A stretch of DNA of 58,134 bases, the filler included, from Fonticula-like sp. SCN 57-25 (Eukaryota), in assembly GCA_001724245.1 (NCBI GenBank). It is 5 parts of 5 records of this genome, joined end to end, with 100 filler letters (N's around TTAATTAATTAA, not from the genome) between each part and the next. Parts side by side here need not be neighbours in the genome. Positions count along the whole stretch, not along the records: positions 46,629 to 58,134 come from MEDX01000199.1; 4 more parts are not named here. The stretch is one strand, 5' to 3'. Shown here in pieces: positions 46,629 through 58,134 of the stretch (position 1 is its first letter; every line of letters starts with the position of its first letter). Both the position numbers and the translations under genes were made by a program. The notes under the pieces were generated by a model. That model was not told the origin of the DNA. It saw only the letters and a list, made by a program, of their open reading frames with translations, and did no database searches.

Positions 46629-47225
46629 GCCCCTGCGGTGCGTGATTTGAGGCGATTTGAGGCTTTGGAAACGCTGACAGATCGTTACGGTAAACATTTA
46701 CCGGAAAGGTCGGTTTGAGCCCTGTTACACAGAGTTTGAATCCTGAAAATCGCATGCGATTTTTGGAAACGATCTGATTGGTCAGTTTGATCTTCCTTTC
46801 GAGTGGGATCCCACAATTTGAGAGGGTCATTTTCGCAACGACCTCGAATCTGCGCGCGGCTCCATTGGTTCTTTACATCTTCAGGATTTTCCTGATTGCA
46901 ACAAATTAGTGTATCGTATTTCCGCGGATGACGATTCGGTTCTTATTAGGCGCCTGCCTGACACGCCCCAGATAGCTGACGCGGACCCCCTTTTATAAAT
47001 ATCCAAAGCAAAAGAAGAGAGAGTAAGTGAGCAGAGGCGTTGCTTTTTGCACGATGTACGCAAACTTTGCGAGTTGGACCTACGGAATGGAACCTTTGCT
47101 ATGGTACTTTATTAGACAAATTCATTCCGCAACACATATAGCAAAACAGAAGAGCAAAAGGTACTGGCAAATATCACAGTTCGACAAGAAAGAAGAGGTT
47201 CTATGGTACAAATGGCGCGCAAACT

Positions 47226-48683
47226 TTAGCGCGTGGAGGGCATTTTAGAGGCGAGCGTGTTGGCCCGCGTGAAGGGGTAAGACAAAAAGTCAAAGATTGC
47301 GGCCAGGCCGCCTGAAACCGGGTCGGCCGGCATGTCGGCCACGTCTTCTTGGCTGTGGTAGTCATTGTCGTCGTCTTGGCTGTGGTAGTCATTGTCGTCC
47401 TCCTCCTTTGTGGGCAGCGAGTGGTCCAGCGGGAAAGGCTCGAGTACCACCTCCTGCTCATCGTCGTCCATGAACGCGTCGTCGGCGACGACGTCATCGA
47501 GGTGGTCCAGCTCGCCGGGAATGGCGCTGTCAAACTCGAGCGCGCGCCCATGGCTCTCATCGGCGTCGTCTTGCGCGTACGTCTCCTGGTCAGCGCCGGG
47601 GCCCATGACCTCGAGGAGCGAGCCGAGTACCGCGCGGTACATGTGCGGCGGCTCGTTCGCGACCAGCGGGGCGAGGCCGAGGTTACCGGTGGGGGGCGCG
47701 GGGGCGATCGGTGGCTGCTCGTCGGAAGCCGCCACCGACGCATCCACAAACGGCGCAAGCGACGAGTCGCCATTGAGCAGCCGCTTGACTTTAAGCTTTT
47801 CTACTTTGCCTTCCCAGAATTCCTGCAGGAAACAGTGAGCGCGAGCGGGGGAGAAGGGCTGGTGCGTACAGTGCGATTTTGAAACTTTTTCGGTGTCGTG
47901 TCCGACGGCGAGATGGCTCGGCACACGCGCCACCCGCGAAACACATGCACGACATCAAGGCGATAGCGCAGCGCGCAGTCTGCCTTGGACGACAGCTCCC
48001 GTAGGTAAATCGTGATCTCGGCTGGGCAAAGAAGGTCAGGAAAGAGAAAGGAGGCAAGAAAAAGGGAAACGCACTGGCGCCATCAACGTAAAATTCGGCC
48101 TTGGAGGCCACTTTAAGCGCCGCGTCGCGCGGAAGCCTTCCGGGCAAACATTAGGCTCGAGAAACGAGAATGCACTAGCGTACTTGTTATGCATGATGCG
48201 GAGCTGGTTGTTTTTCGTCAAGATGGGGCGGAGCGAAGAGTCCAACAACACAAAACTACGGATACCTGTTCACAAAAACGTTAATAATTGCCCGATGCAT
48301 CGAGAGGAGAGAATGGGGGCGCGCACGGCGGTCTCCGCTCTGGACAGCGTGGTGCAAATTTCTCCACTTGTCCTTTAGGTCGGTCGCCGTGCGGCCAGGC
48401 GAAAATGACGCTGCCCGATGCTTGAGAATCATTGACCACGCCCCCTCGCCATATCGTCTAACACCTTCCTCGAGAGCCCTACGGGATGCGCGCAGTGAGC
48501 ATGAGTTTTGCAGGGAGGAGGATGGGGGAGGAAGCGGAGGAAAAAAAAGGGCACGCACTCTACCTCGCCGTCGTTCCAAAGAACGCGCTGGCGCCTTCTC
48601 TTGGTTGGCGAGCCTTCCACAGAAGAAGACTCGGAATACCTCCCATATTCGTCATCGTCGCTCGATCGCTTGGGCGATGACAT
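47226..48683 (-). CDS. Telobox (TRF-like) single-Myb protein fused to an MC1-like chromatin domain and an acidic tail (6 exons)
   Basis: RRRQRVLWNDGEVE|ALEEGVRRYGEGAWSMILK...RTATDLKDKWRNL (telobox). In-frame splicing of four further GT-AG introns gives RSFVLLD...NKLPRDAALKVASK...ITIYLREL...VVHVFRGWR...EFWEGKVEKLKVKRL. Confidence 0.8.
47347..47399. repeat. 27-bp tandem duplication encoding DDNDYHSQ(D/E) twice
   Basis: tcttggctgtggtagtcattgtcgtc occurs twice in tandem. Confidence 0.9.
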
Positions 48684-49062
48684 GCTAAGCCTCGACTACC
48701 TCGGCCACGATTCCAGGGGTGCTCGGGACGAAAGGAAAGAAATGCAAACCCCACCCGGATTTCTCACTACCTTTGCCAATATCCCCGATATACGTCTCCC
48801 CCGGCGACTTGGAGAAATAGGTAGAGGTGTCTTTAATGTGCTGGGCCGCCCACCCTCTCGGGATCTTGCGGGGAGGGGAGGAGGGTTCAGCCTCTTCCAA
48901 TAGAACACAAGAAAGAAAAAATTGTTCTCGATGCACGCCATTGGCGGATAATTTGGCGGGAAAAATTGACAGATTGAGGGTCTCGAATGCCATTGGCCAG
49001 CTCGGATTGCAGCCCACTCATTGGCCGTGAAGTGCACACTACCTAGCCGTGGCGGTGCAGGG

Positions 49063-50430
49063 ATGGGCGAGCGGTTGCCGGTTGTGTCGTTGCGCGAGCT
49101 GCTCGATAGCACACGGCGGCCTGTTCCCACGCGTAGTTTGGCCGCGCAGCTTGGGTTGCAGTCTTCATCGAATTCGCAGCCGGTTGCGCCACCATCTGTC
49201 GACGATGCGCCTCCGGCCACTGCCGCGCCCCAAAAGCCGCCGAAGAGGAGTCTTCGCCAGATATTGAGCGGCAGCAGTAGCAGCCAGGTCTCTGAGCCTG
49301 AAGAGCGGGATCCCGATGCTTTGGTCGCGGAGGCTTTGACGCGGATCGCCACGCAGAATGTGGCTGCCTTCAAGGATGCTATTGCCGACAAAGAAGCGGT
49401 GGCAATTAGAGAAGTGGTTGCCGTCAAGAAAGTAAACGACACCAGTGATCAAGCCGAATCAGAAAAAGAAGAAGAGCACGATATATATTTTCTTCCGCCG
49501 AAAACGAAGCGCCGCAGGACTATACGCGAAACGGCGGTGCGCTGCGGATCGCTCTCAACCTCGCGCGATGCTGACCGGTTCATTTCCGCAGAGATTCAAC
49601 GCGCGGGTAGAACGTGCGCTGAACCAGCGAATGTACCTTATTGACAGACAGGTTGTTACTCCGCTTGAGAAGGAGGAGTTCAAGGTGCTCGGCTCGACGG
49701 GCAATGTGTACAAGGTGACCGTGGAGCAGTCCCCCTCGTGCTCGTGCCCCGACAGCAGAAAGGACAACCGCTGCAAGCATATCGTACGCCCTCGCACCGC
49801 CTTTCTGCGTCTTGTTTACCCTCTGCGCAGCTGTTTGTATTGATTCGCGTGCTTCGACTGCCGGAGGATTCGCCTCTACTATGGGAGACGTTTTTTCAGC
49901 ATGATGAACTGGAAGACATGCTTTCTCAGGCGCCACCGCAGACCCTCCTCTCTGTCCTTGTACGCCTTTGCCTTTCACCGACGTGTGCTGAATCGCCGAT
50001 GCCATTGCAGGCGAGCGAGCGAGTGCGCGACGCGTACGAGGCCCTTGTGAGCGGCAAGGGCGCCAAGGTGGAGCGCAAGTCGCTCGACTGCGAGTGCCCC
50101 ATCTGCATGGAGGACATGGCCGAGTCGCCGGTCGAGCTGGTCGCGTACTGCGCTGTGTGCGGCAACAACATTCACAAGGACTGCCTTACGCGGTGGCTTT
50201 CGCAAAGTGTGGGCCGCACGTGCGTCTATTGCCGGCAACCGTGGACGGACGGTGGCTCGCCCCTCGCCGCGGCCGGCGAGGCAAACACAAACGAGGGTTA
50301 CGTCAACCTGTCGCACGAGGCCGACATGTCAAGAGAGCGCCGTACGAGGAAAAACGGGTATAATGATATACTTGTAATTAACATGCTTTTAGATTATTAT
50401 AGCCGCACTCGTCGATGGGGCTACAACTAA
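49063..50430 (+). CDS. SWIM zinc finger + RING finger protein (MEKK1 N-terminus/ZSWIM2-like putative E3 ligase)
   Basis: RALNQRMYLI...FKVLGSTGNVYKV...SCSCPD...CKHI|LFVL (SWIM); CPICMEDM...CAVCGNNIHKDCLTRW...CVYCRQPW (RING). Confidence 0.88.
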
Positions 50431-50478
50431 CCACGAGATATTGTGTCGTGTATATTACATCATTGTACAAATGTCATT

Positions 50479-51823
50479 CTATTGCATCGAATTTATGTTT
50501 TGCAGGGCGATGAGCAGCAAATGCGTGACGTCCCCTTTCCTCTCCTCATACGAGTTGAGGAACGCAAAGGCGGGTGCATAGAGCGCACCGAGGCGCACCG
50601 CTCGATCCACCGCGTCGCGGGGGACGGCCATGAGAAGCTCGCGCAGCCGTGGGACGTCCCGCAGATCCACACGCACGGCCATGTGGTCCCAGGGGACAAG
50701 CTCATGGAAGGGCGGCACGACGTCGTCCCCGATGATCACAGGAACGCAGCCGTAAAAGAGGGACTCGACCGGCCGCGGCGTCCACAAATAAAACCCGGGT
50801 GGGCACAGGCAGAACGTCGCACCAAGGGCCTAAACGCCTAAAAGTCAACAAAAGGGGGGCAAAAACGACGTACATACGCGCTCAAAGTCGCTGTCGCGGT
50901 CATTTTCTATGAGAATGTCGCCCGACTGGCCGTATAGTTCAAAGAGGAGCTGCCGCACGCCAAAGCTGTGGTGCCAGTACGGCCGGATGACACCCTTGAA
51001 CGCCGCTAGAAGCGGCCGCATTGGCGACGCGCGCGCTCCAAGCGCCTGACGTGCGTGTCCCGTCAGCGAGGGCGGGATGATAATGTGCCGGCGGGGCTGC
51101 GCTCGCGTCAGCGTGGATGACGCAAGAAAGGGACGCGCACATTATACCCAAGGCGCCGGTTTCCGTGCGACAGCAAGAGGACGGGGTCGCCGGGCGGTAG
51201 CACGTTGCCTTCCAGGGCCTCGTAGGCAAACCCATGCGTAATGGCAAATATGTGGTCGCGGCCGCCGCGGCGGCGCCACAAGTTCTTATCGAGATGCCGA
51301 GCGGCTGTGCGAGATCAGCAAGTGCGCGCAGGAGGGGATCTTGCCGAGGGATCTCGCACCTATAGAGAATGCCTCTCGGTACATAGAGAGGCTGTACGGC
51401 TCGCCCGTGGCTATTGTCCTCGAGCATGCGTATTTGTTGGCGTACACGGGAATGTAGATAAAGTCGGCCTGCCGGTTCCATTAGCGTACGATCGCCGTCG
51501 CCGAATGGTACCTTTTCGGGCGTGTCAACACGCGCGCTGCTCCGGAGCAACAGCTCGTGTAAATGAACCTCCATGTCAAACAAGTGGTTCATTGGGCCCA
51601 TTTTGCAGGCGGCCACCGAGACGTTGAGGACGCTCGACGTGACATCGGGCACCGCTTCGGCGACGAATCTGATGCGCATGAGTATCGTAAACATCTCGTA
51701 TTCTGCGCACATGGAAACCGACGGGCGGTCCGCAAACAGTTGACTAAACTGCGCGTGCTCGTCGCGTGCGGCTGCCTGCACGGCCAGGCACGCGATGATC
51801 ACCGCCGTTGCGATGGTCAGCAT
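50479..51823 (-). CDS. Exostosin-family (GT47) glycosyltransferase, multi-exon
   Basis: Signal/anchor; EVHLHELLLRS...TPEKADFIYIPVY; WRRRGGRDHIF; FCLCPPG...WTPRPVESLFYGCVPVIIGD...PPFHELVPW. Confidence 0.88.
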
Positions 51824-51968
51824 TTCAAAGTGTCAATCCGTCATCGAGGCGCTCACCTTGCGCTTCCTATTGGTCGATTCTGGGTCGAATGCCCAACACG
51901 ATGGTCACAGCTGTGTCTCTGCGATGGAGCAAATATGGTAAAGTGTTCTATTGAATACATCATTTAAA

Positions 51969-53114
51969 TCATGCGGGCATGTTGGCAAGAGGCAGCGGGC
52001 GAATAAAATGCACGCTCTCGTCCCATGATGCCGTTGCCATCTGGCCCGGCACGAACAAGTTAAAGTCGATGCCGCACGCGAATCCTGCGTGCCGATCGTA
52101 CACATCGAGAAGCGGCGCTGGCTACAGAATGACACAGGTACTTCAGCATCGCCGCAAGCGGCCAAAAGTGCAATAGGGCGTACCTGCGAGTAGTCCCATA
52201 ACCTCACCGTGGTGTCGTAAGACGCAGTGGCGATGATGTTTCCGTGGTGCGGATCGCACTTGACGCGCCGTACGGCGTTCGTGTGCCCCTCGAGCCTCGC
52301 AAGCGGCTGAAGCGGGCTCCTCAGGTCCCACACGCACGCCGTGCGGTCCGCCGACGCCGTGACAATTGTATTATTCTTGTACTTGTTCCAGTCGAGGCTG
52401 AGCACCTCGTGGTTGTGTGCGCGGAGCGTGAACGGCGCCCCGCCGCCCCGCGTGTCCCACACCTTTACGGTCGTGTCTCCCGACGCGGACGCCATCACAG
52501 CCGCGTCCGACGGCGACCATTGCACCGTGTACACACACCCGGTGTGCTCGCCGAAGGACGCCAGCGCGGTCGGGCGAAGCGGATCCCACTACATGGGGAT
52601 GCAAAGGTCAGCTAAAAGCGGACGATCGCAGGAAAAGCGCACCAGTTTGACAGTGAGATCCCACGATGAAGACGCAAACGTGTCTTTTGAGATAAAGTTC
52701 CAGGCGACGCCAAACACCTCCCGCGTATGCCCCGCAAACTGCTGCACCGGGTGCTCGGGCACGGTCACATCCCACAGGCGGATGTTGCCGTCGCCGCCAC
52801 CAGTCACCACGTGGCGCTCATTCGACTCGCTCCAGCAGCAGTCAAACGTGCCGTCCTGCGTCATGTACGTCTTCTCTACGAGCACGCCGGCCGGCCCAAC
52901 GCGCCCAACCAGCAGCTGGCCATTGCCCACAATGCCAAAGTGCTGCGCGGCACTCACCGCAAATAGGCCTTCATCAAACGGGCTAAATTGTACCTGGTCG
53001 CAATTTAACGTCAATAATGCATTCAACACGAGGGAGACAACCGCGCAGGCCGCAACGCACAGAATTGGGCGCAAAAGGAGCCGTCCGCAGCACCGCACCC
53101 GCCGGCACCGACAT
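51969..53114 (-). CDS. PEX7: Peroxisomal targeting signal 2 receptor (WD40)
   Basis: QFSPF...SAAQHFGIVGNGQL, TQDGTFDCCWSESNE, SSSWDLTVKLW, AHNHEVLSLDWNKY, GHTNAVRRVKCDPH, ASYDTTVRLW. Confidence 0.93.
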
Positions 53115-53130
53115 GGCGCGCAATGACAAG

Positions 53131-53138
53131 TCACGTGA
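53131..53138. promoter_or_regulatory. TCACGTGA E-box immediately upstream of PEX7, followed by CCAAT
   Basis: GTCACGTGAT lies ~17 bp from the PEX7 ATG. Confidence 0.5.
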
Positions 53139-53793
53139 TTTCCATGGGCTCAGCCAATAAGAATGCGCCATTTGTGTATCGCGCATTCCCGGACCATTTT
53201 GGGTGCTTTTTCGGCCAGTCTGCCCCGTTCTATTCAATATCTGACACTTTCCGCTGGGTATATGTAACGCATCGTTCGCGCCTTGGGGCGTTTCCCTCGG
53301 CCGTCCCTCGACACTGCCTTCAGCTGGAGCCTGTCCCTGATCTCGCGATCTGATTGGTCCACATCACCCACATGGCCAGAGGGTCCCGTACGCCCCCCCC
53401 CGAACCGGTTTGCTAGCTGTTCCAAACATAGCGAGGGGACCCAAAACAACACCCCCCGAAGCAATGTCAGTACCAATTTTTTTCTCGTTCCTTTTCTTGT
53501 TTGGACCTTCCTCGCAGGTGAAGTTTCTGTGAACCGGTGCTGCTTTTTTCTAGCGTCGCCGTTGCCACAGTTTACTTCCAAACCTGTACGCCCTTTTTTT
53601 TATTATGCCAGCTGGTTTATTTGGGCGAGCGCCTATTTTTGCATATTTTCGCCTCGCCTTCTTCGGTATTAACACCCCCTTTCTTAGTTTTGTGCCTTTT
53701 CCCTTTCGTCTCCATTTCGACGAAGAGTAAAGTTTAGACGTACGTCGGGCCACCCTTTTTTCTTTGCCATTCCATTTGTTGTAGCGGCGTTGA

Positions 53794-54524
<731 letters not shown>

Positions 54525-54832
54525 ACGCGAGAAAAGAAAGAAGGAGGTCCTGCTGTAAGCGAGCAGTGATTATGCTTTTTGTTCATTTGTATTCCCGTCT
54601 TTCGATTCCACGAGTCGCTCTTTACTTTTCTTTTTACATCCATATGCTGTCGTTTTGTGACCGTGCTTTGTCGCTCTCTGCCTTTGCTATTCTTCAAAAC
54701 CCGTCTGCAAACAAAACATCAATGGACGAGCACCTGGCACAACTTGCGTATCCTGGTCCACATTATAGATTAAAAGTATCTACAAAAAGAGGATATAACC
54801 CTAGCGGGTAGAAAGGAGGAATATATTTATGA

Positions 54833-57124
54833 TCAGTGGTACTTGCCGGCAAAGTTGGCCGACGCGTCCGAGAGGCGCTTGTTGAACCAATGGTTGGCGA
54901 GGTCGTCCTCGTCCGCGCGCAAAAAGTCCAGCAGGTCGAGGCTCTCCCGCATGCCCTGGTGCTGCAGGATGCCCTTGAGGTACACGTTGAGGTTCTCCAT
55001 GCGCTCCTTGGACACCTTTTGTATGTGGCTGCGCCCAATGAAAATTTTGGGCGGGAAGGGTGGCAGAAGCGTGTTGGGGTATCTCATCTTGAGCGTCGTA
55101 TGCAGCTCGAGAAACTGCCTGTGAAAAGAGAGGCGCGGGTGTTAGGCGTCAGAGCAGCGAGAGAGCGAGCTGCGCACTTGTAGCGGCGGAACACTGGAAT
55201 TGGGTCCTCGACGGGCTGCGTCGAGTTGGGCGCCAGGCGCATGACGCGCAGCTCGTACGCATAGTACTTTTCGGGATCGTGGCGCTTTTCAAAATTGACG
55301 ACGGAAATGTCGTGAATCGTCGTGAGTTCTGTTTCGGCGCTTGGCACGCGCGGCTTGCCCTCATCAACGTCCTTGCGCACATGGTCGGCCCCTGCATCGC
55401 GGTGAGCACAGCGAGAAAGCAAAAAGTAAAACTGGGGATACGCACCGATCTGCTTGGACGTGGCCGGCGCGGGCCCGAGCTCGTTCAGGTACTTTTGCCC
55501 CACGGCGCTGTAGAAGAAGCGCGGGAAGACGTCGTTCTGCAGCTGCTGGTAGACGAGCGCCTGCGCTTCGTCAAACATGTTGAGGCTGATGCTCAGCGAT
55601 TCCAAGCGCGCAGCCAGAGCGCGCTTCATCTCACGCGGAACGTCGACGGCCAACTCGGCGTCGTCGGAAAGGTACTTTTGGTACAGGCTCTTGGCGTACC
55701 CAATGGCGTCAGTCGTGGTTGCTGCGCGGCACATTTTTTAGTTCGCTGCAATGCCGGTCGAGCGACGCACCTTTGACATGCTGGAACTGGCGCACGTCGA
55801 GCCAAAACAGCATCTTTTCGACGGTATAATCGTCCACCGAAAAGGCGCACAGGTAGTCGACGCCCTTGTCGGTCGCGAGGACGCCGTCGAGCGACCGCGG
55901 GTCATTCGCGCGCGGCATCGGCTCCTCCTCCGACACTGCGAATCACAACACGCTAAGCATTGGGCATTCGCGTATTCACAGCAAGACGTACTTTCCATCG
56001 AAAGCATGAGGCCATCAAGCATGCTCTGGCGCGCCTCGGCCTTGGCGGGCTTGCTTTCCGTGGCCGGCGGCAGCGCCGGTGGGGCTTCCACGGGCTTTGG
56101 TGGCGCGGCGACGAGAGGCGCAGGCAGAGGAACGTCGGCGGCCGACATGCTAAAGGTCAGCGGCGGCGGAAGAGGTGGCGAAGGCATAGAGGGCGTGGGC
56201 CGAGGCGGCGGGGGAACAGACGGTGGCGAATAGTTTGTGGCGAGCAGTTTGGCGATGTTTGGCAGCTCGCGCCGGAAGAGGACAGAGTCGCGCGAGACGC
56301 ACGACGAGCACACGGGCGCCTCATTGCGCTGGTAGGAGCGCGTCGCGCCCTGAATGACGCGCTGGCAGTGCTGGCACTTGAAGCACGCCGCGTGGAAATG
56401 CCGCCCAAACTGGGCGAGGCCGTCGGCAACAATGGGCAGTGAGCAGGTGTGGCACTTTGGCGAGCCTAGCAGCATTGTCAGCAAGTGCACATGAACCTAT
56501 ATCATGTACGAACAAGAAAGGCAAATGGGGCGGCCGTCGGGGCCGAGGCCAAACTGCTGGCCGTTCACGGCCGCGTCGCACGTGGCGCATCGCATGCAGC
56601 TGATGTGGTAGCAGCGGTCGTTGTAGCGCACAAAGAGGGACGTCGGATCAAGCTCCTCGTGGCAGCTTGCGCACTGTTCCACCTTGACCACGGGCGGCTT
56701 GCTCTGCTCCATGGCCTGCAACACATTCTTGCAAAGCAGCGCGATGCCCTGCAGCATACTGATGAGCGCGGCCTTGCGGCGGCGATCCTCGGTCGAATCT
56801 ACACTCGGGCTCGCAACAAGCCCGCGCGCATCCTGTAGGCAAATGCGCAGAGCAGTCGAGAGGGCGTCGACGTGCCGCAGGATTGGTGTGCGGGCTGAGG
56901 GCGGTCGAGGCGGTCGGTCAGCTCCATTTACACTAGCCAAAGCACGTACCCGCCTTGTCGCTGGGCGCAGTCCTTAGCGTTTCCTCCATTAAGCTTTTCA
57001 CAGCAGCGGCGAATTCGGTAAGTTTAGTAATATACACCGACGCCTCAGAAAGGCTCGCCTTGGAGAGCGCCACCATGCTCGCCACCACGCGGCGCTGCTC
57101 TTCGGCCAGCGCACCGGTGTCCAT
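54833..57124 (-). CDS. Multidomain scaffold: FAT-like helical bundle, 2 LIM, Pro-rich linker, LD-like motif, RGS, PX (7 exons)
   Basis: Six short introns join all parts in frame. LIM: CASC...YHISCMRCATC...ICLSC and CHTC...FHAACFKCQHC...CSSC. RGS: VEKMLFWLDVRQF...LYQKYL...MFDEAQALVYQQLQNDVFPRFFYS. PX: FEKRHDPEKYYAY...FRRYKQFLELH...PPFPPK...RSHIQKVSKER...DFL. Confidence 0.85.
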
Positions 57125-57556
57125 GGCGAAGCTGTTGTTGTTTTGAGTTGCCCACAATGCTGCGACAGGTATGGCTATTGTCACCCCCAACTGTACCCTG
57201 GACGAATCTTGTTGTTCATTTGGTCAGGGGTGAGCCAATGGGAATGAGTCACATCGGTGTTGGATCTTGCGCATGTGATTGGCTGTCCAACTGGCTTTGC
57301 AATTTTCCTTTCGTCTCACCGAAAATGGCGCGGACTGACGTTGGCCATATTGCGCCATGTTAACAATCGAGTAATTAGGGGGGGTTCTTGGTCGAATCTG
57401 CCAAATAGTTGTTATTGGGTCTATTGTAACCGTGAGGACGGTTGGTCCAAAAAGCGGAACGATTGAAAGATGCAGGCCCCCTTAGGAATCACCATATTGG
57501 GCCATGTGTTTGAAATCGTGCCGAAAAAAGGGCCTCTGAGCTCACATTGGGGTGGT

Positions 57557-57595
57557 CCAATATGCAATCCCCCAAACTGGTGACAAGGTATAAAA
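57557..57595 (+). promoter_or_regulatory. CCAAT + TATA core promoter of the YABBY/HMG-like gene
   Basis: CCAAT at 57557 and TATAAAA at 57589-57595, about 75 bp before the ATG at 57670. Confidence 0.55.
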
Positions 57596-57669
57596 GCCAG
57601 TGTAACTTGCAGGGCCACACTTTTTAGCACTACCTCTCGTCCCCGACCAGATCGTTTGCACACAACAAC

Positions 57670-57979
57670 ATGCCTAAGGCTAAGACTACCAAGAAGGCCG
57701 CCGGTGAGGGTGCGTGCTCCAGATCGCTTCCTCGAGCGATGCAGGTTTCTAACTGCGGTGCTTTTTGATATAGGTGGCAAGCGCCCCCTCACTGCCTACA
57801 ACAAGTTCATGCAGGAGGAGCTCGCCCGCATGAAGGCCGCCAACCAGTCGCTCGACCACAAGGCCGCCTTCAAGGCCGCCGCCGCCAACGTACGCCCCCG
57901 CTGCTCTTGCACCCTTGATAGATCGCCAAACGCTGACACACACTCGCAGTGGCAGAAGCACAAGGAGAGCCAGAAGTGA
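57670..57979 (+). CDS. Small basic YABBY/HMG-box-like DNA-binding protein (~60 aa, 3 exons)
   Basis: MPKAKTTKKAAGE|GGKRPLTAYNKFMQEELARMKAANQSLDHKAAFKAAAAN|WQKHKESQK* fits the YABBY motif AYN.F.KEE..R.K...P...H..AF..AA.NW. Confidence 0.85.
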
Positions 57980-58134
57980 GCGATGTCGCCATGCGGCCTT
58001 TGCTCCTTTGTTGCCTCTTCCTGTTCCATTCGTCGTTGTGTTCCGGTCCGTTTTAACGCACGGGGACGCGTCGATGGGCGCAGTCCCCTGCCGTGTTTGT
58101 AGTATGCAATAGTATTTCGCAAAACATTTATGGT

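Follow-up and report, generated by a model that had tools for sequence, protein, structure and literature searches.

The stretch of DNA analysed here (the window) is 58,134 nt long and comes from the opisthokont protist Fonticula-like sp. SCN 57-25 (assembly GCA_001724245.1). It was joined from parts of five records, and the gene under study lies in the last part, positions 46,629 to 58,134, which belongs to record MEDX01000199.1. The coding strand is the minus strand, 57124-54833, with the ATG at 57124-57122 and the TGA at 54835-54833. The gene encodes a protein in which a helical head is followed by two LIM domains, a proline-rich linker, an RGS domain and a PX domain. Its features, all on the minus strand, are listed below, and the values given for the domains are Pfam expectation (E) values and bit scores.

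54833..57124, minus: whole coding region, 7 exons, coding sequence of 1971 nt, 656 amino acids (aa)
57124-56950, 56894-56514, 56465-55992 and 55935-55771, minus: exons 1-4, set by GT..AG boundaries and frame
55721-55446, 55391-55178 and 55118-54833, minus: exons 5-7 (TGA included), set by GT..AG boundaries and frame
56701..57124, minus: N-terminal helical head, residues 1-123, containing intron 1 (56949-56895)
56464..56673, minus: LIM domain 1, residues 133-186, PF00412 at E 4.3e-9, 36.9 bits vs. a cut-off of 22.9; its last codon spans intron 2 (56513-56466)
56293..56454, minus: LIM domain 2, residues 190-243, PF00412 at E 2.9e-8, 34.3 bits vs. a cut-off of 22.9
56029..56238, minus: proline-rich linker, residues 262-331, 25 Pro in 70 residues, unalignable among relatives
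55993..56022, minus: LD-like motif MLDGLMLSME, residues 334-343, at the end of exon 3, fitting the pattern LD.L[LMIV]..[LMIV]
55483..55897, minus: RGS domain (PF00615), residues 357-478, containing intron 4 (55770-55722)
55392..55445, minus: intron 5, 54 nt, in frame and without stops; its retention would lengthen the stretch from RGS to PX by 18 residues
54929..55320, minus: PX domain, residues 515-625, PF00787 (exon 7) at E 2.6e-14, 54 bits vs. a cut-off of 21.6, containing intron 6 (55177-55119)
54836..54928, minus: conserved C-terminal tail ...NHWFNKRLSDASANFAGKYH, kept to the last residue in the relatives P0001 and P0002 and in the fragment P0005

Both strands of the region were read, splice donors were scanned with the pattern GT[AG][CA]G[TC] and the intron contexts were inspected. 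Introns 1-6 are 55, 48, 56, 49, 54 and 59 nt long, all six have GT..AG ends, and the reading frame is unbroken only with this exon set. For intron 2, a GTACAT donor was rejected because the frame is lost with it; the GTTCGT donor at 56513, four bases upstream, restores the frame. This donor yields the junction CLSC-SPK-CHTC (C-x2-C-S-P-K-C), which is kept in 9/9 aligned family members, and from LIM1 to the C-terminus the protein runs collinearly with P0001 and P0002. Pfam was scanned on in-frame exon pieces, with matches reported to E<=1, while the inputs for folding and the large searches were individual exons, an unspliced stretch or relatives rather than the whole spliced chain. No transmembrane segment was predicted by a crude test, in which the best 19-residue Kyte-Doolittle mean was 1.39, in helix 4 of the head. 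The gene is confirmed as a real, single, seven-exon gene by its splice signals, its continuous frame and the relatives collinear with it, of which two are transcript-derived. The initial annotation had described one seven-exon gene with this order of parts, and both the gene model and the Pfam matches agree with it; the positions that it gave for the start, the stop and the LD-like motif are exact.

The public protein set holds only an 84-residue open reading frame, P0017, which corresponds to window positions 54836-55087, is identical to the C-terminus of the gene product and starts at an internal Met. The gene calls of this genome seem to have been made with no intron models, which would leave its multi-exon proteins out of the protein databases.

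Both LIM domains have complete sets of zinc ligands, namely C133, C136, H155, C158, C161, C164, C183 and C186 in LIM1 and the matching eight in LIM2. They are joined by only three residues, Ser-Pro-Lys, a junction that is a hallmark of the family. The nearest solved structures to LIM1 were the LIM domains of Lhx4 (best E 6.5e-10), Lhx3, abLIM and LMO, and those to LIM2 were PINCH-1 (E 1.4e-4) and TRIP6. No paxillin- or zyxin-specific likeness was seen among these solved-structure matches. LIM arrays shown to sense strain have at least three LIM domains. Since there are only two LIM domains here, of the LHX/LMO and PINCH types, and they are separated by three residues, nothing points to actin-strain sensing, and the earlier placement of the LIM domains at actin-strain sites was not borne out.

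The RGS domain was recognised mainly through exon 5, which matched PF00615 at E 4.2e-10 (40.5 bits vs. a cut-off of 23.9). Exon 4 supplies the first 39 PF00615 positions at E 0.12 and lies under the cut-off when taken alone; its matches in the PDB were to light-harvesting proteins and were judged to be chance. The nearest solved chains were RGS1 (E 6e-5) and RGS18 for exon 5, and RGS14 and RGS4 for a family fragment, P0010. In these alignments, 'SEEN' of RGS4 pairs with 'SVEK' of the family, which reads TVEK in the window (K384). Likewise, 'QINID' of RGS1 and 'EVNLD' of RGS18 pair with 'AVDVP' in the window (D425). In classical RGS domains, two Asn residues touch the G-alpha switch regions (RGS4 Asn88 and Asn128), and we take these to be their positions. 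The Glu of 'VEK' and a D-x-F-P-R-F stretch are retained, and the latter aligns with D-S-Y-P-R-F of RGS1.

The nearest solved structure to the PX domain was that of PI3K-C2alpha (2ar5, E 1e-6). No TKS-type PX was found among the solved-structure matches at E<=0.001, and only the second half of the earlier 'TKS/PI3K-C2 type' label therefore stands. As described in the available part of PMC6449406, the pocket for phosphatidylinositol 3-phosphate (PtdIns3P) is made of an Arg-Tyr pair, the Lys of the PsiPxxPxK motif and an Arg in helix alpha2, and a secondary site is centred on a His or Tyr in helix alpha1. All four pocket residues are present in the window's PX (R560, Y561, K586 in LPPFPPK, and R601), with H568 at the secondary site. 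By its sequence, this PX domain has what is expected of a canonical PtdIns3P binder.

The distribution of the protein was then examined. The unspliced exon 5-intron 5-exon 6 stretch, used as a query, returned one longer protein, H696_02712 of Fonticula alba (P0001, 627 aa), at 37% identity. P0001 carries LIM, RGS and PX, and it is 40% identical to the window's protein across the RGS-PX core. Exon-wise BLASTP showed the two to be collinear from LIM1 to the last residue, with tails that are 45% identical and both end in KYH. With P0001 as the query, HMMER was run exhaustively against 1.84 billion cluster representatives; it retrieved 423 proteins at E<=0.001, of which 36 reached 1e-10 and 3 reached 1e-30. 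The best match, P0002, is a 709-aa protein from an environmental source; it is 41% identical to the window's protein across the RGS-PX core and has the head. Altogether, eight relatives are collinear with the window over the shared LIM-to-RGS region, most of them on to PX.

A domain census was conducted with Pfam (E<=0.001) on the best 50 of 150 listed matches (423 in total). LIM, RGS and PX occurred together in 5 proteins (P0001, P0002, P0003, P0006 and P0015, with the PX of P0003 under the Pfam cut-off). LIM and RGS with no PX call were found in 9 (P0007, P0013, P0014, P0018, P0019, P0023, P0024, P0032 and P0050), of which P0007 and P0019 align through the PX region despite the lack of a call. 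RGS and PX without LIM were found in 3 (P0008, P0042 and P0047), and the 33 others had a single family or other contents, including one LIM+RhoGAP protein and one PI3K-C2-type kinase. PXA or Nexin_C was found in 0 of the best 50 relatives scanned. The named LIM-bearing members come from Fonticula alba (P0001), Paraphelidium tribonemae (P0003, a transcript), Amoeboaphelidium protococcarum (P0007, KAI3644707.1) and Savillea parva (P0015, a transcript labelled 'type:complete'); the Paraphelidium and Savillea transcripts are Trinity-type. Paraphelidium and Amoeboaphelidium are aphelids, and Savillea is a choanoflagellate. RGS-PX proteins without LIM come from Salpingoeca urceolata, Diaphanoeca grandis and a cluster containing an entry from Pleurobrachia bachei. 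No Dikarya or vertebrate members were seen among the matches examined.

The initial annotation had called this a domain combination that it did not recognise. Our architecture search finds the combination already in public protein sets, in Fonticula, Amoeboaphelidium, Paraphelidium and Savillea, where the relatives are catalogued as 'hypothetical' or under automatic names; the whole window protein is absent from the public set. Because of these entries the architecture counts as already catalogued, though the family is undescribed. No description of a LIM-RGS or LIM-RGS-PX protein was found in the literature searched, and a figure of RGS architectures (S6) in PMC3971589, a source available in part, may show one. 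The family is thus a small, undescribed, opisthokont one.

The head, encoded by exon 1 and the helical half of exon 2, gave no Pfam match at E<=1. When the spliced protein was aligned with eight relatives by MAFFT, a helical region before LIM1 was seen in the window, P0002, P0003, P0007, P0019, P0024 and partly P0006, and it was absent from the Fonticula and Savillea proteins as annotated. Exons 1 and 2 align collinearly with one continuous P0002 N-terminus, starting 8-9 residues after both Met residues. In Smith-Waterman comparisons, the window head scored z 4.6 against the P0002 head (reached by 1/1000 shuffles) and z 3.95 against the P0019 head (10/1000). The P0002 and P0007 heads scored z 5.3 against each other, and the four aphelid-type heads are mutually related at z 9-34. 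From these scores, the homology of the window head to the heads of the relatives appears only moderately supported.

Structures of two relatives' heads were modelled with AlphaFold2 from a five-sequence alignment. The P0002 model (pLDDT 76.4, pTM 0.63) has helices at 2-21, 27-62, 67-102 and 114-142, and the Paraphelidium P0003 model (pLDDT 88.1, pTM 0.82) has helices at 12-31, 43-71, 76-105 and 112-146. For the P0002 head, the top Foldseek row was the FAK FAT domain 5f28 (E 0.037, TM-scores 0.56/0.63). For the Paraphelidium head, the highest Foldseek TM-scores were with FAK FAT 7w8i (0.75/0.84, root mean square deviation (rmsd) 2.2 over 145 columns) and Pyk2 FAT 4r32 (0.74/0.83). An aligner independent of Foldseek placed the Paraphelidium head nearest to sponge vinculin (Z 15.2), Pyk2 FAT (Z 14.8, rmsd 2.0, 128 aligned), the vinculin tail (Z 14.7) and p130Cas (Z 14.3). 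Rows 1-16 of that list were without exception adhesion-plaque bundles, from vinculin, catenin, talin, TLNRD1, FAT, Cas or GIT1; designed bundles began at rank 17 (Z 12.6), and rank 50 had a Z of 10.3.

Searches at the sequence level did not reach FAT. Against Pfam, the P0002 head gave Focal_AT at 9.0 bits (cut-off 23.3, E 1.7) and PDC10_C at 14.7 bits (cut-off 27.3, E 0.033), both sub-threshold, and a SOG2 match (E 0.0029) was also under the Pfam cut-off. A profile of five heads found no FAT-class chain among PDB sequences at E<=10. Language-model neighbours of the head were Focal_AT (0.81) and GIT1_C (0.80 and 0.77), all under the trust level of 0.9. The best PDB sequence match of the five-head profile was 8t8u, 'Kinase' (E 0.008), which was discarded as chance since it covers one helix only; 8t8u is a giant-virus inositol phosphate kinase, according to the available part of PMC10897400. 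No other architectures with this head were found, as looking for longer proteins by word index gave nothing with exon 2 and, with the five-head profile, only 4/5 of its own input sequences. The structural matches support the fold class, not homology. We therefore regard a four-helix bundle of the FAT/vinculin-tail class, seen in the models of two relatives, as the probable fold of the head, while true FAT homology or LD binding is doubtful. Of the FAT-like N-terminus proposed initially, the fold class stands and sequence-level membership of FAT does not (Focal_AT at 9.0 bits vs. 23.3).

We read this protein, with moderate confidence, as a soluble, 656-residue, phosphoinositide-targeted RGS scaffold of amoeboid or phagotrophic opisthokonts. 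Fonticula, aphelids and choanoflagellates are relatives of fungi and animals with an amoeboid or phagotrophic way of life. The layout would be a four-helix head, a rigid LIM pair, a disordered Pro-rich linker, RGS and PX. The PX domain, with its complete PtdIns3P pocket and a His/basic secondary site, would place the protein on an endosome, phagosome or macropinosome, possibly on the plasma membrane. At the phosphoinositide-marked membrane, RGS would engage a GTP-bound G protein, and further proteins may dock on the head, on the LIM pair and on the PxxP-rich linker. What has been observed is the gene model with its domains, the family and the states of the residues, and from these we infer the lipid targeting, the partner GTPase and the role and ligand of the head.

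A number of observations weigh against this reading. Both classical Asn positions are replaced in the window (K384, D425). Among nine aligned proteins, the first is Lys in five and Asn in one, and the second is Asn only in P0002, so that a GTPase-activating protein (GAP) function does not appear to be conserved in the classical form across the family. Next, the PtdIns3P pocket is complete in only 3/8 members with an aligned PX (the window, P0002 and Savillea P0015). Fonticula has Phe and Arg at two pocket positions, and four aphelid-type members are without at least two of the four pocket residues. Because the pocket is complete in so few members, PtdIns3P binding is not a family constant. Moreover, the PX of PI3K-C2alpha binds di- and tri-phosphorylated lipids, according to the part of PMC6449406 available. 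This is the nearest solved PX, and the window's PX may therefore be specific for lipids other than PtdIns3P.

The head brings further points of this kind. The window head scored z 1.4, -0.3 and -0.8 against the heads of P0003, P0007 and P0024, respectively, and the five-relative head profile gave it 5.2 bits, a score reached by 45/2000 shuffles; it thus seems only weakly tied to the heads that were modelled. Neither head model has a PDB match at Foldseek E<=0.001. The independent aligner matched the P0002 head to the vinculin tail (Z 13.6), p130Cas (12.3), Pyk2 FAT (11.3), GIT1 (10.8), CCM3 (10.2) and FAK FAT (9.0), with designed bundles interleaved at Z 11.0-11.5 (Z 11-12.6 overall), and the aligner itself warns that Z under ~13 is common for helical bundles.

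The replaced Asn pair bears directly on what the RGS domain does. Since both of the residues taken to contact G-alpha are lost, GAP activity is doubtful, as is the G-alpha inactivation that had been proposed for this protein. Because the Asn pair is now Lys and Asp, the domain is more likely to be a weak GAP or a plain binder of an active GTPase than a strong GAP, as far as its sequence can tell.

Another possible explanation, which we hold tentatively, is that RGS binds another GTP-bound GTPase, such as a Rab, and has no G-alpha GAP activity. RGS and PX would then form a two-point endosomal or phagosomal anchor, and the protein would be a trafficking or cytoskeletal adaptor. The substitution of both classical G-alpha-contact Asn residues and their variation across the family fit this explanation. 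In the available part of 10.64898/2026.09.15.751902, RGS domains from SNX13 and SNX14 bind GTP-Rab5 and GTP-Rab11, and a PX-plus-RGS dual anchor is proposed, with D-AKAP2 as a precedent; this Rab binding makes a partner other than G-alpha a serious rival. Some RGS domains without GAP activity also act as scaffolds (PMC3971589, in the part available). On the other hand, the RGS domain is closest to the classical R4/R12 domains (RGS1, 18, 14 and 4), with no SNX-type RGS among the matches, and both the D..PRF stretch and the 'VEK' Glu are still there.

The linker between LIM and RGS was examined for the FAT-LD contact that had been suggested. The consensus of paxillin-type LD motifs is LDxLLxxL in an amphipathic helix. 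The Pro-rich linker and MLDGLMLSME at 55993-56022 are both present, as the initial annotation had stated. The pattern LD.L[LMIV]..[LMIV] arises in 420/20000 shuffles of the whole protein (2.1%) and in 34/20000 shuffles of the linker. The LD-like motif was found in 0/17 relatives by a strict or a loose pattern, and three of them (P0006, P0007 and P0023) have no more than a bare LDxL in the linker between LIM and RGS. We conclude that the motif is real in the window's sequence and is not a family feature. Because it is missing from 17/17 relatives, the intramolecular FAT-LD autoinhibition proposed earlier is not a family feature either. A complex prediction of exon 1 and the helical part of exon 2 with the last 30 residues of exon 3 gave scores of 0.00 and 0.00, which counts neither way.

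As a separate observation, the otherwise unconserved LIM-RGS linker of the aphelid-type proteins P0003, P0006, P0007, P0019 and P0024 has a basic PPxR[KR]xS / KRTVS site, followed in P0003, P0006, P0007 and P0019 by a [PS]xL[DQK]xL[SEK]K element. The site could be a kinase or 14-3-3 site, and it is absent from the window's protein.

A broader proposal is that the protein represents an ancestral opisthokont device, which we consider unlikely. The device would link heterotrimeric G-protein signalling to the machinery of adhesion or of the phagocytic cup. In it, a true FAT head would dock LD proteins such as paxillin or, in this species, latch onto the protein's own linker, LIM would bind cytoskeletal partners, and the PX-placed RGS would quench G-alpha at newly formed membranes marked by phosphoinositides. 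The device would have been lost when amoeboid feeding was abandoned in fungi and when the adhesome was rebuilt in animals. If the head is a FAT-type LD binder, the family would put the FAT module to a second use, one free of a kinase, and would show how G-protein signalling became wired to the cytoskeleton before the animal-fungal divergence.

We consider the adhesion scaffold of the initial annotation very unlikely. It holds that the head binds LD, either paxillin's or the protein's own in an autoinhibitory manner, that LIM reads actin strain and that RGS quenches G-alpha at adhesions. The FAT-class fold of the relatives' heads is in its favor, as the nearest structures include FAT, p130Cas and GIT1 bundles that were crystallised with paxillin or leupaxin LD peptides, judging from the entry titles. 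The leads PDC10_C (E 0.033), Focal_AT (E 1.7; neighbour score 0.81) and GIT1_C (0.80/0.77) point the same way, weakly and under their trust levels, and the window's motif fits LDxL[LM]xx[LM], as do 2.1% of shuffles. Counting against it are the 0/17 relatives with the LD-like motif and the three with a bare LDxL, the Fonticula and Savillea orthologues, which as annotated are without the head, the two LIM domains only, of LHX/LMO and PINCH types, and the loss of the RGS Asn residues. This model of adhesion plus autoinhibition has little support beyond the head fold class, and the adhesion wiring and the FAT-LD autoinhibition are speculation.

Finally, a wrong fusion of neighbouring head-LIM-LIM and RGS-PX genes, or a foreign N-terminal exon, is highly improbable, even with an unconserved LIM-RGS linker, choanoflagellate relatives with RGS-PX only (P0008 and P0042) and a public set that has only the 84-residue C-terminal piece P0017, since there is no in-frame stop and no promoter room between the parts, six consensus introns restore one frame, eight relatives including the Paraphelidium and Savillea transcripts are collinear, and exons 1-2 are collinear with the P0002 N-terminus.

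Three other loci in the window drew attention. At 57670-57979 on the plus strand lies a divergently transcribed small gene, apparently of three exons and ~70 aa, whose product matches the YABBY C-terminal (HMG-like) domain PF04690 (E 4.2e-9, 37.1 bits vs. 28.6). YABBY is usually regarded as a plant family, and a tiny YABBY-like protein is odd in an opisthokont protist. At 53899-54524 on the plus strand, a two-exon ARF GTPase gene, with halves matching PF00025 at E 1.8e-39 and 1.6e-34, is convergent with the LIM-RGS-PX gene, their 3' ends being ~300 bases apart. Between 14030 and 23371, frames of 3087 aa (plus) and 3096 aa (minus) are open over the same ~9.3 kb, with a strong AT skew; a single giant gene, repetitive or biased in composition, is the probable explanation.

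LIM, RGS and PX are each well known, and their combination is without a described member in the literature searched. The protein is currently an uncharacterised, domain-shuffled protist protein and would not surprise specialists. It offers a concrete case for what RGS domains do after losing the catalytic Asn, a question that recent studies of SNX13 and SNX14 pose as well.

The closest known systems are the relatives themselves. The Fonticula alba protein P0001 and P0002, P0003, P0006 and P0007 share with the window the LIM-LIM-RGS-PX order, the C-x2-C-SPK-C junction and a tail of the form ...FNKRLS...KYH. P0001 differs in having no helical head as annotated, and it is annotated as 'hypothetical protein' or 'PX domain-containing protein'. 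The aphelid-type members differ in their longer head with an LLTPFSxxEW start, their degenerate PX pocket and their PPxR[KR]xS linker site.

Beyond the family, the head resembles the FAT-class bundles (FAK/Pyk2 FAT, p130Cas, GIT1, CCM3, vinculin tail, talin rod and TLNRD1) in that two relatives are predicted to have an up-down bundle of four helices, ~130-150 residues long. Unlike those bundles, it lies at the N-terminus rather than the C-terminus and has no significant Pfam or PDB sequence match; designed bundles also score nearly as high, and the window head is ~25 residues shorter than the modelled heads. By sequence, the protein belongs to the RGS, PX and LIM superfamilies, and FAT family membership is not demonstrable. 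The fungal LIM-RhoGAP protein Lrg1 is similar in having LIM upstream of a domain acting on a GTP-bound G protein, and a LIM+RhoGAP protein, P0036, was among the relatives scanned. The window's protein differs from Lrg1 in its RGS domain in place of RhoGAP, its two LIM domains with a three-residue junction and its added PX.

A parallel outside the family is with the SNX-PXA-RGS-PXC sorting nexins SNX13, SNX14 and SNX25 (yeast Mdm1), in which RGS is also directly followed by PX, as at residues 357-478 and 515-625 of the window's protein. The presumed logic is alike, with a GTPase-facing domain on a phosphoinositide membrane, as far as the available parts of PMC7956473 and 10.64898/2026.09.15.751902 describe it. 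In contrast to those proteins, the window's protein showed no PXA and no Nexin_C in its exon pieces at E<=1 and has no predicted transmembrane segment, in agreement with the contrast drawn in the initial annotation. With PXA, PXC and the transmembrane segment absent, it is not of the SNX13/14/25 type. It has the extra LIM pair and the head, and its RGS is nearest to R4/R12 and its PX to PI3K-C2alpha. Because the two domains have these separate nearest relatives, we infer that the RGS-PX pairing was assembled independently of that in the SNX-RGS proteins, as it looks from the sequences.

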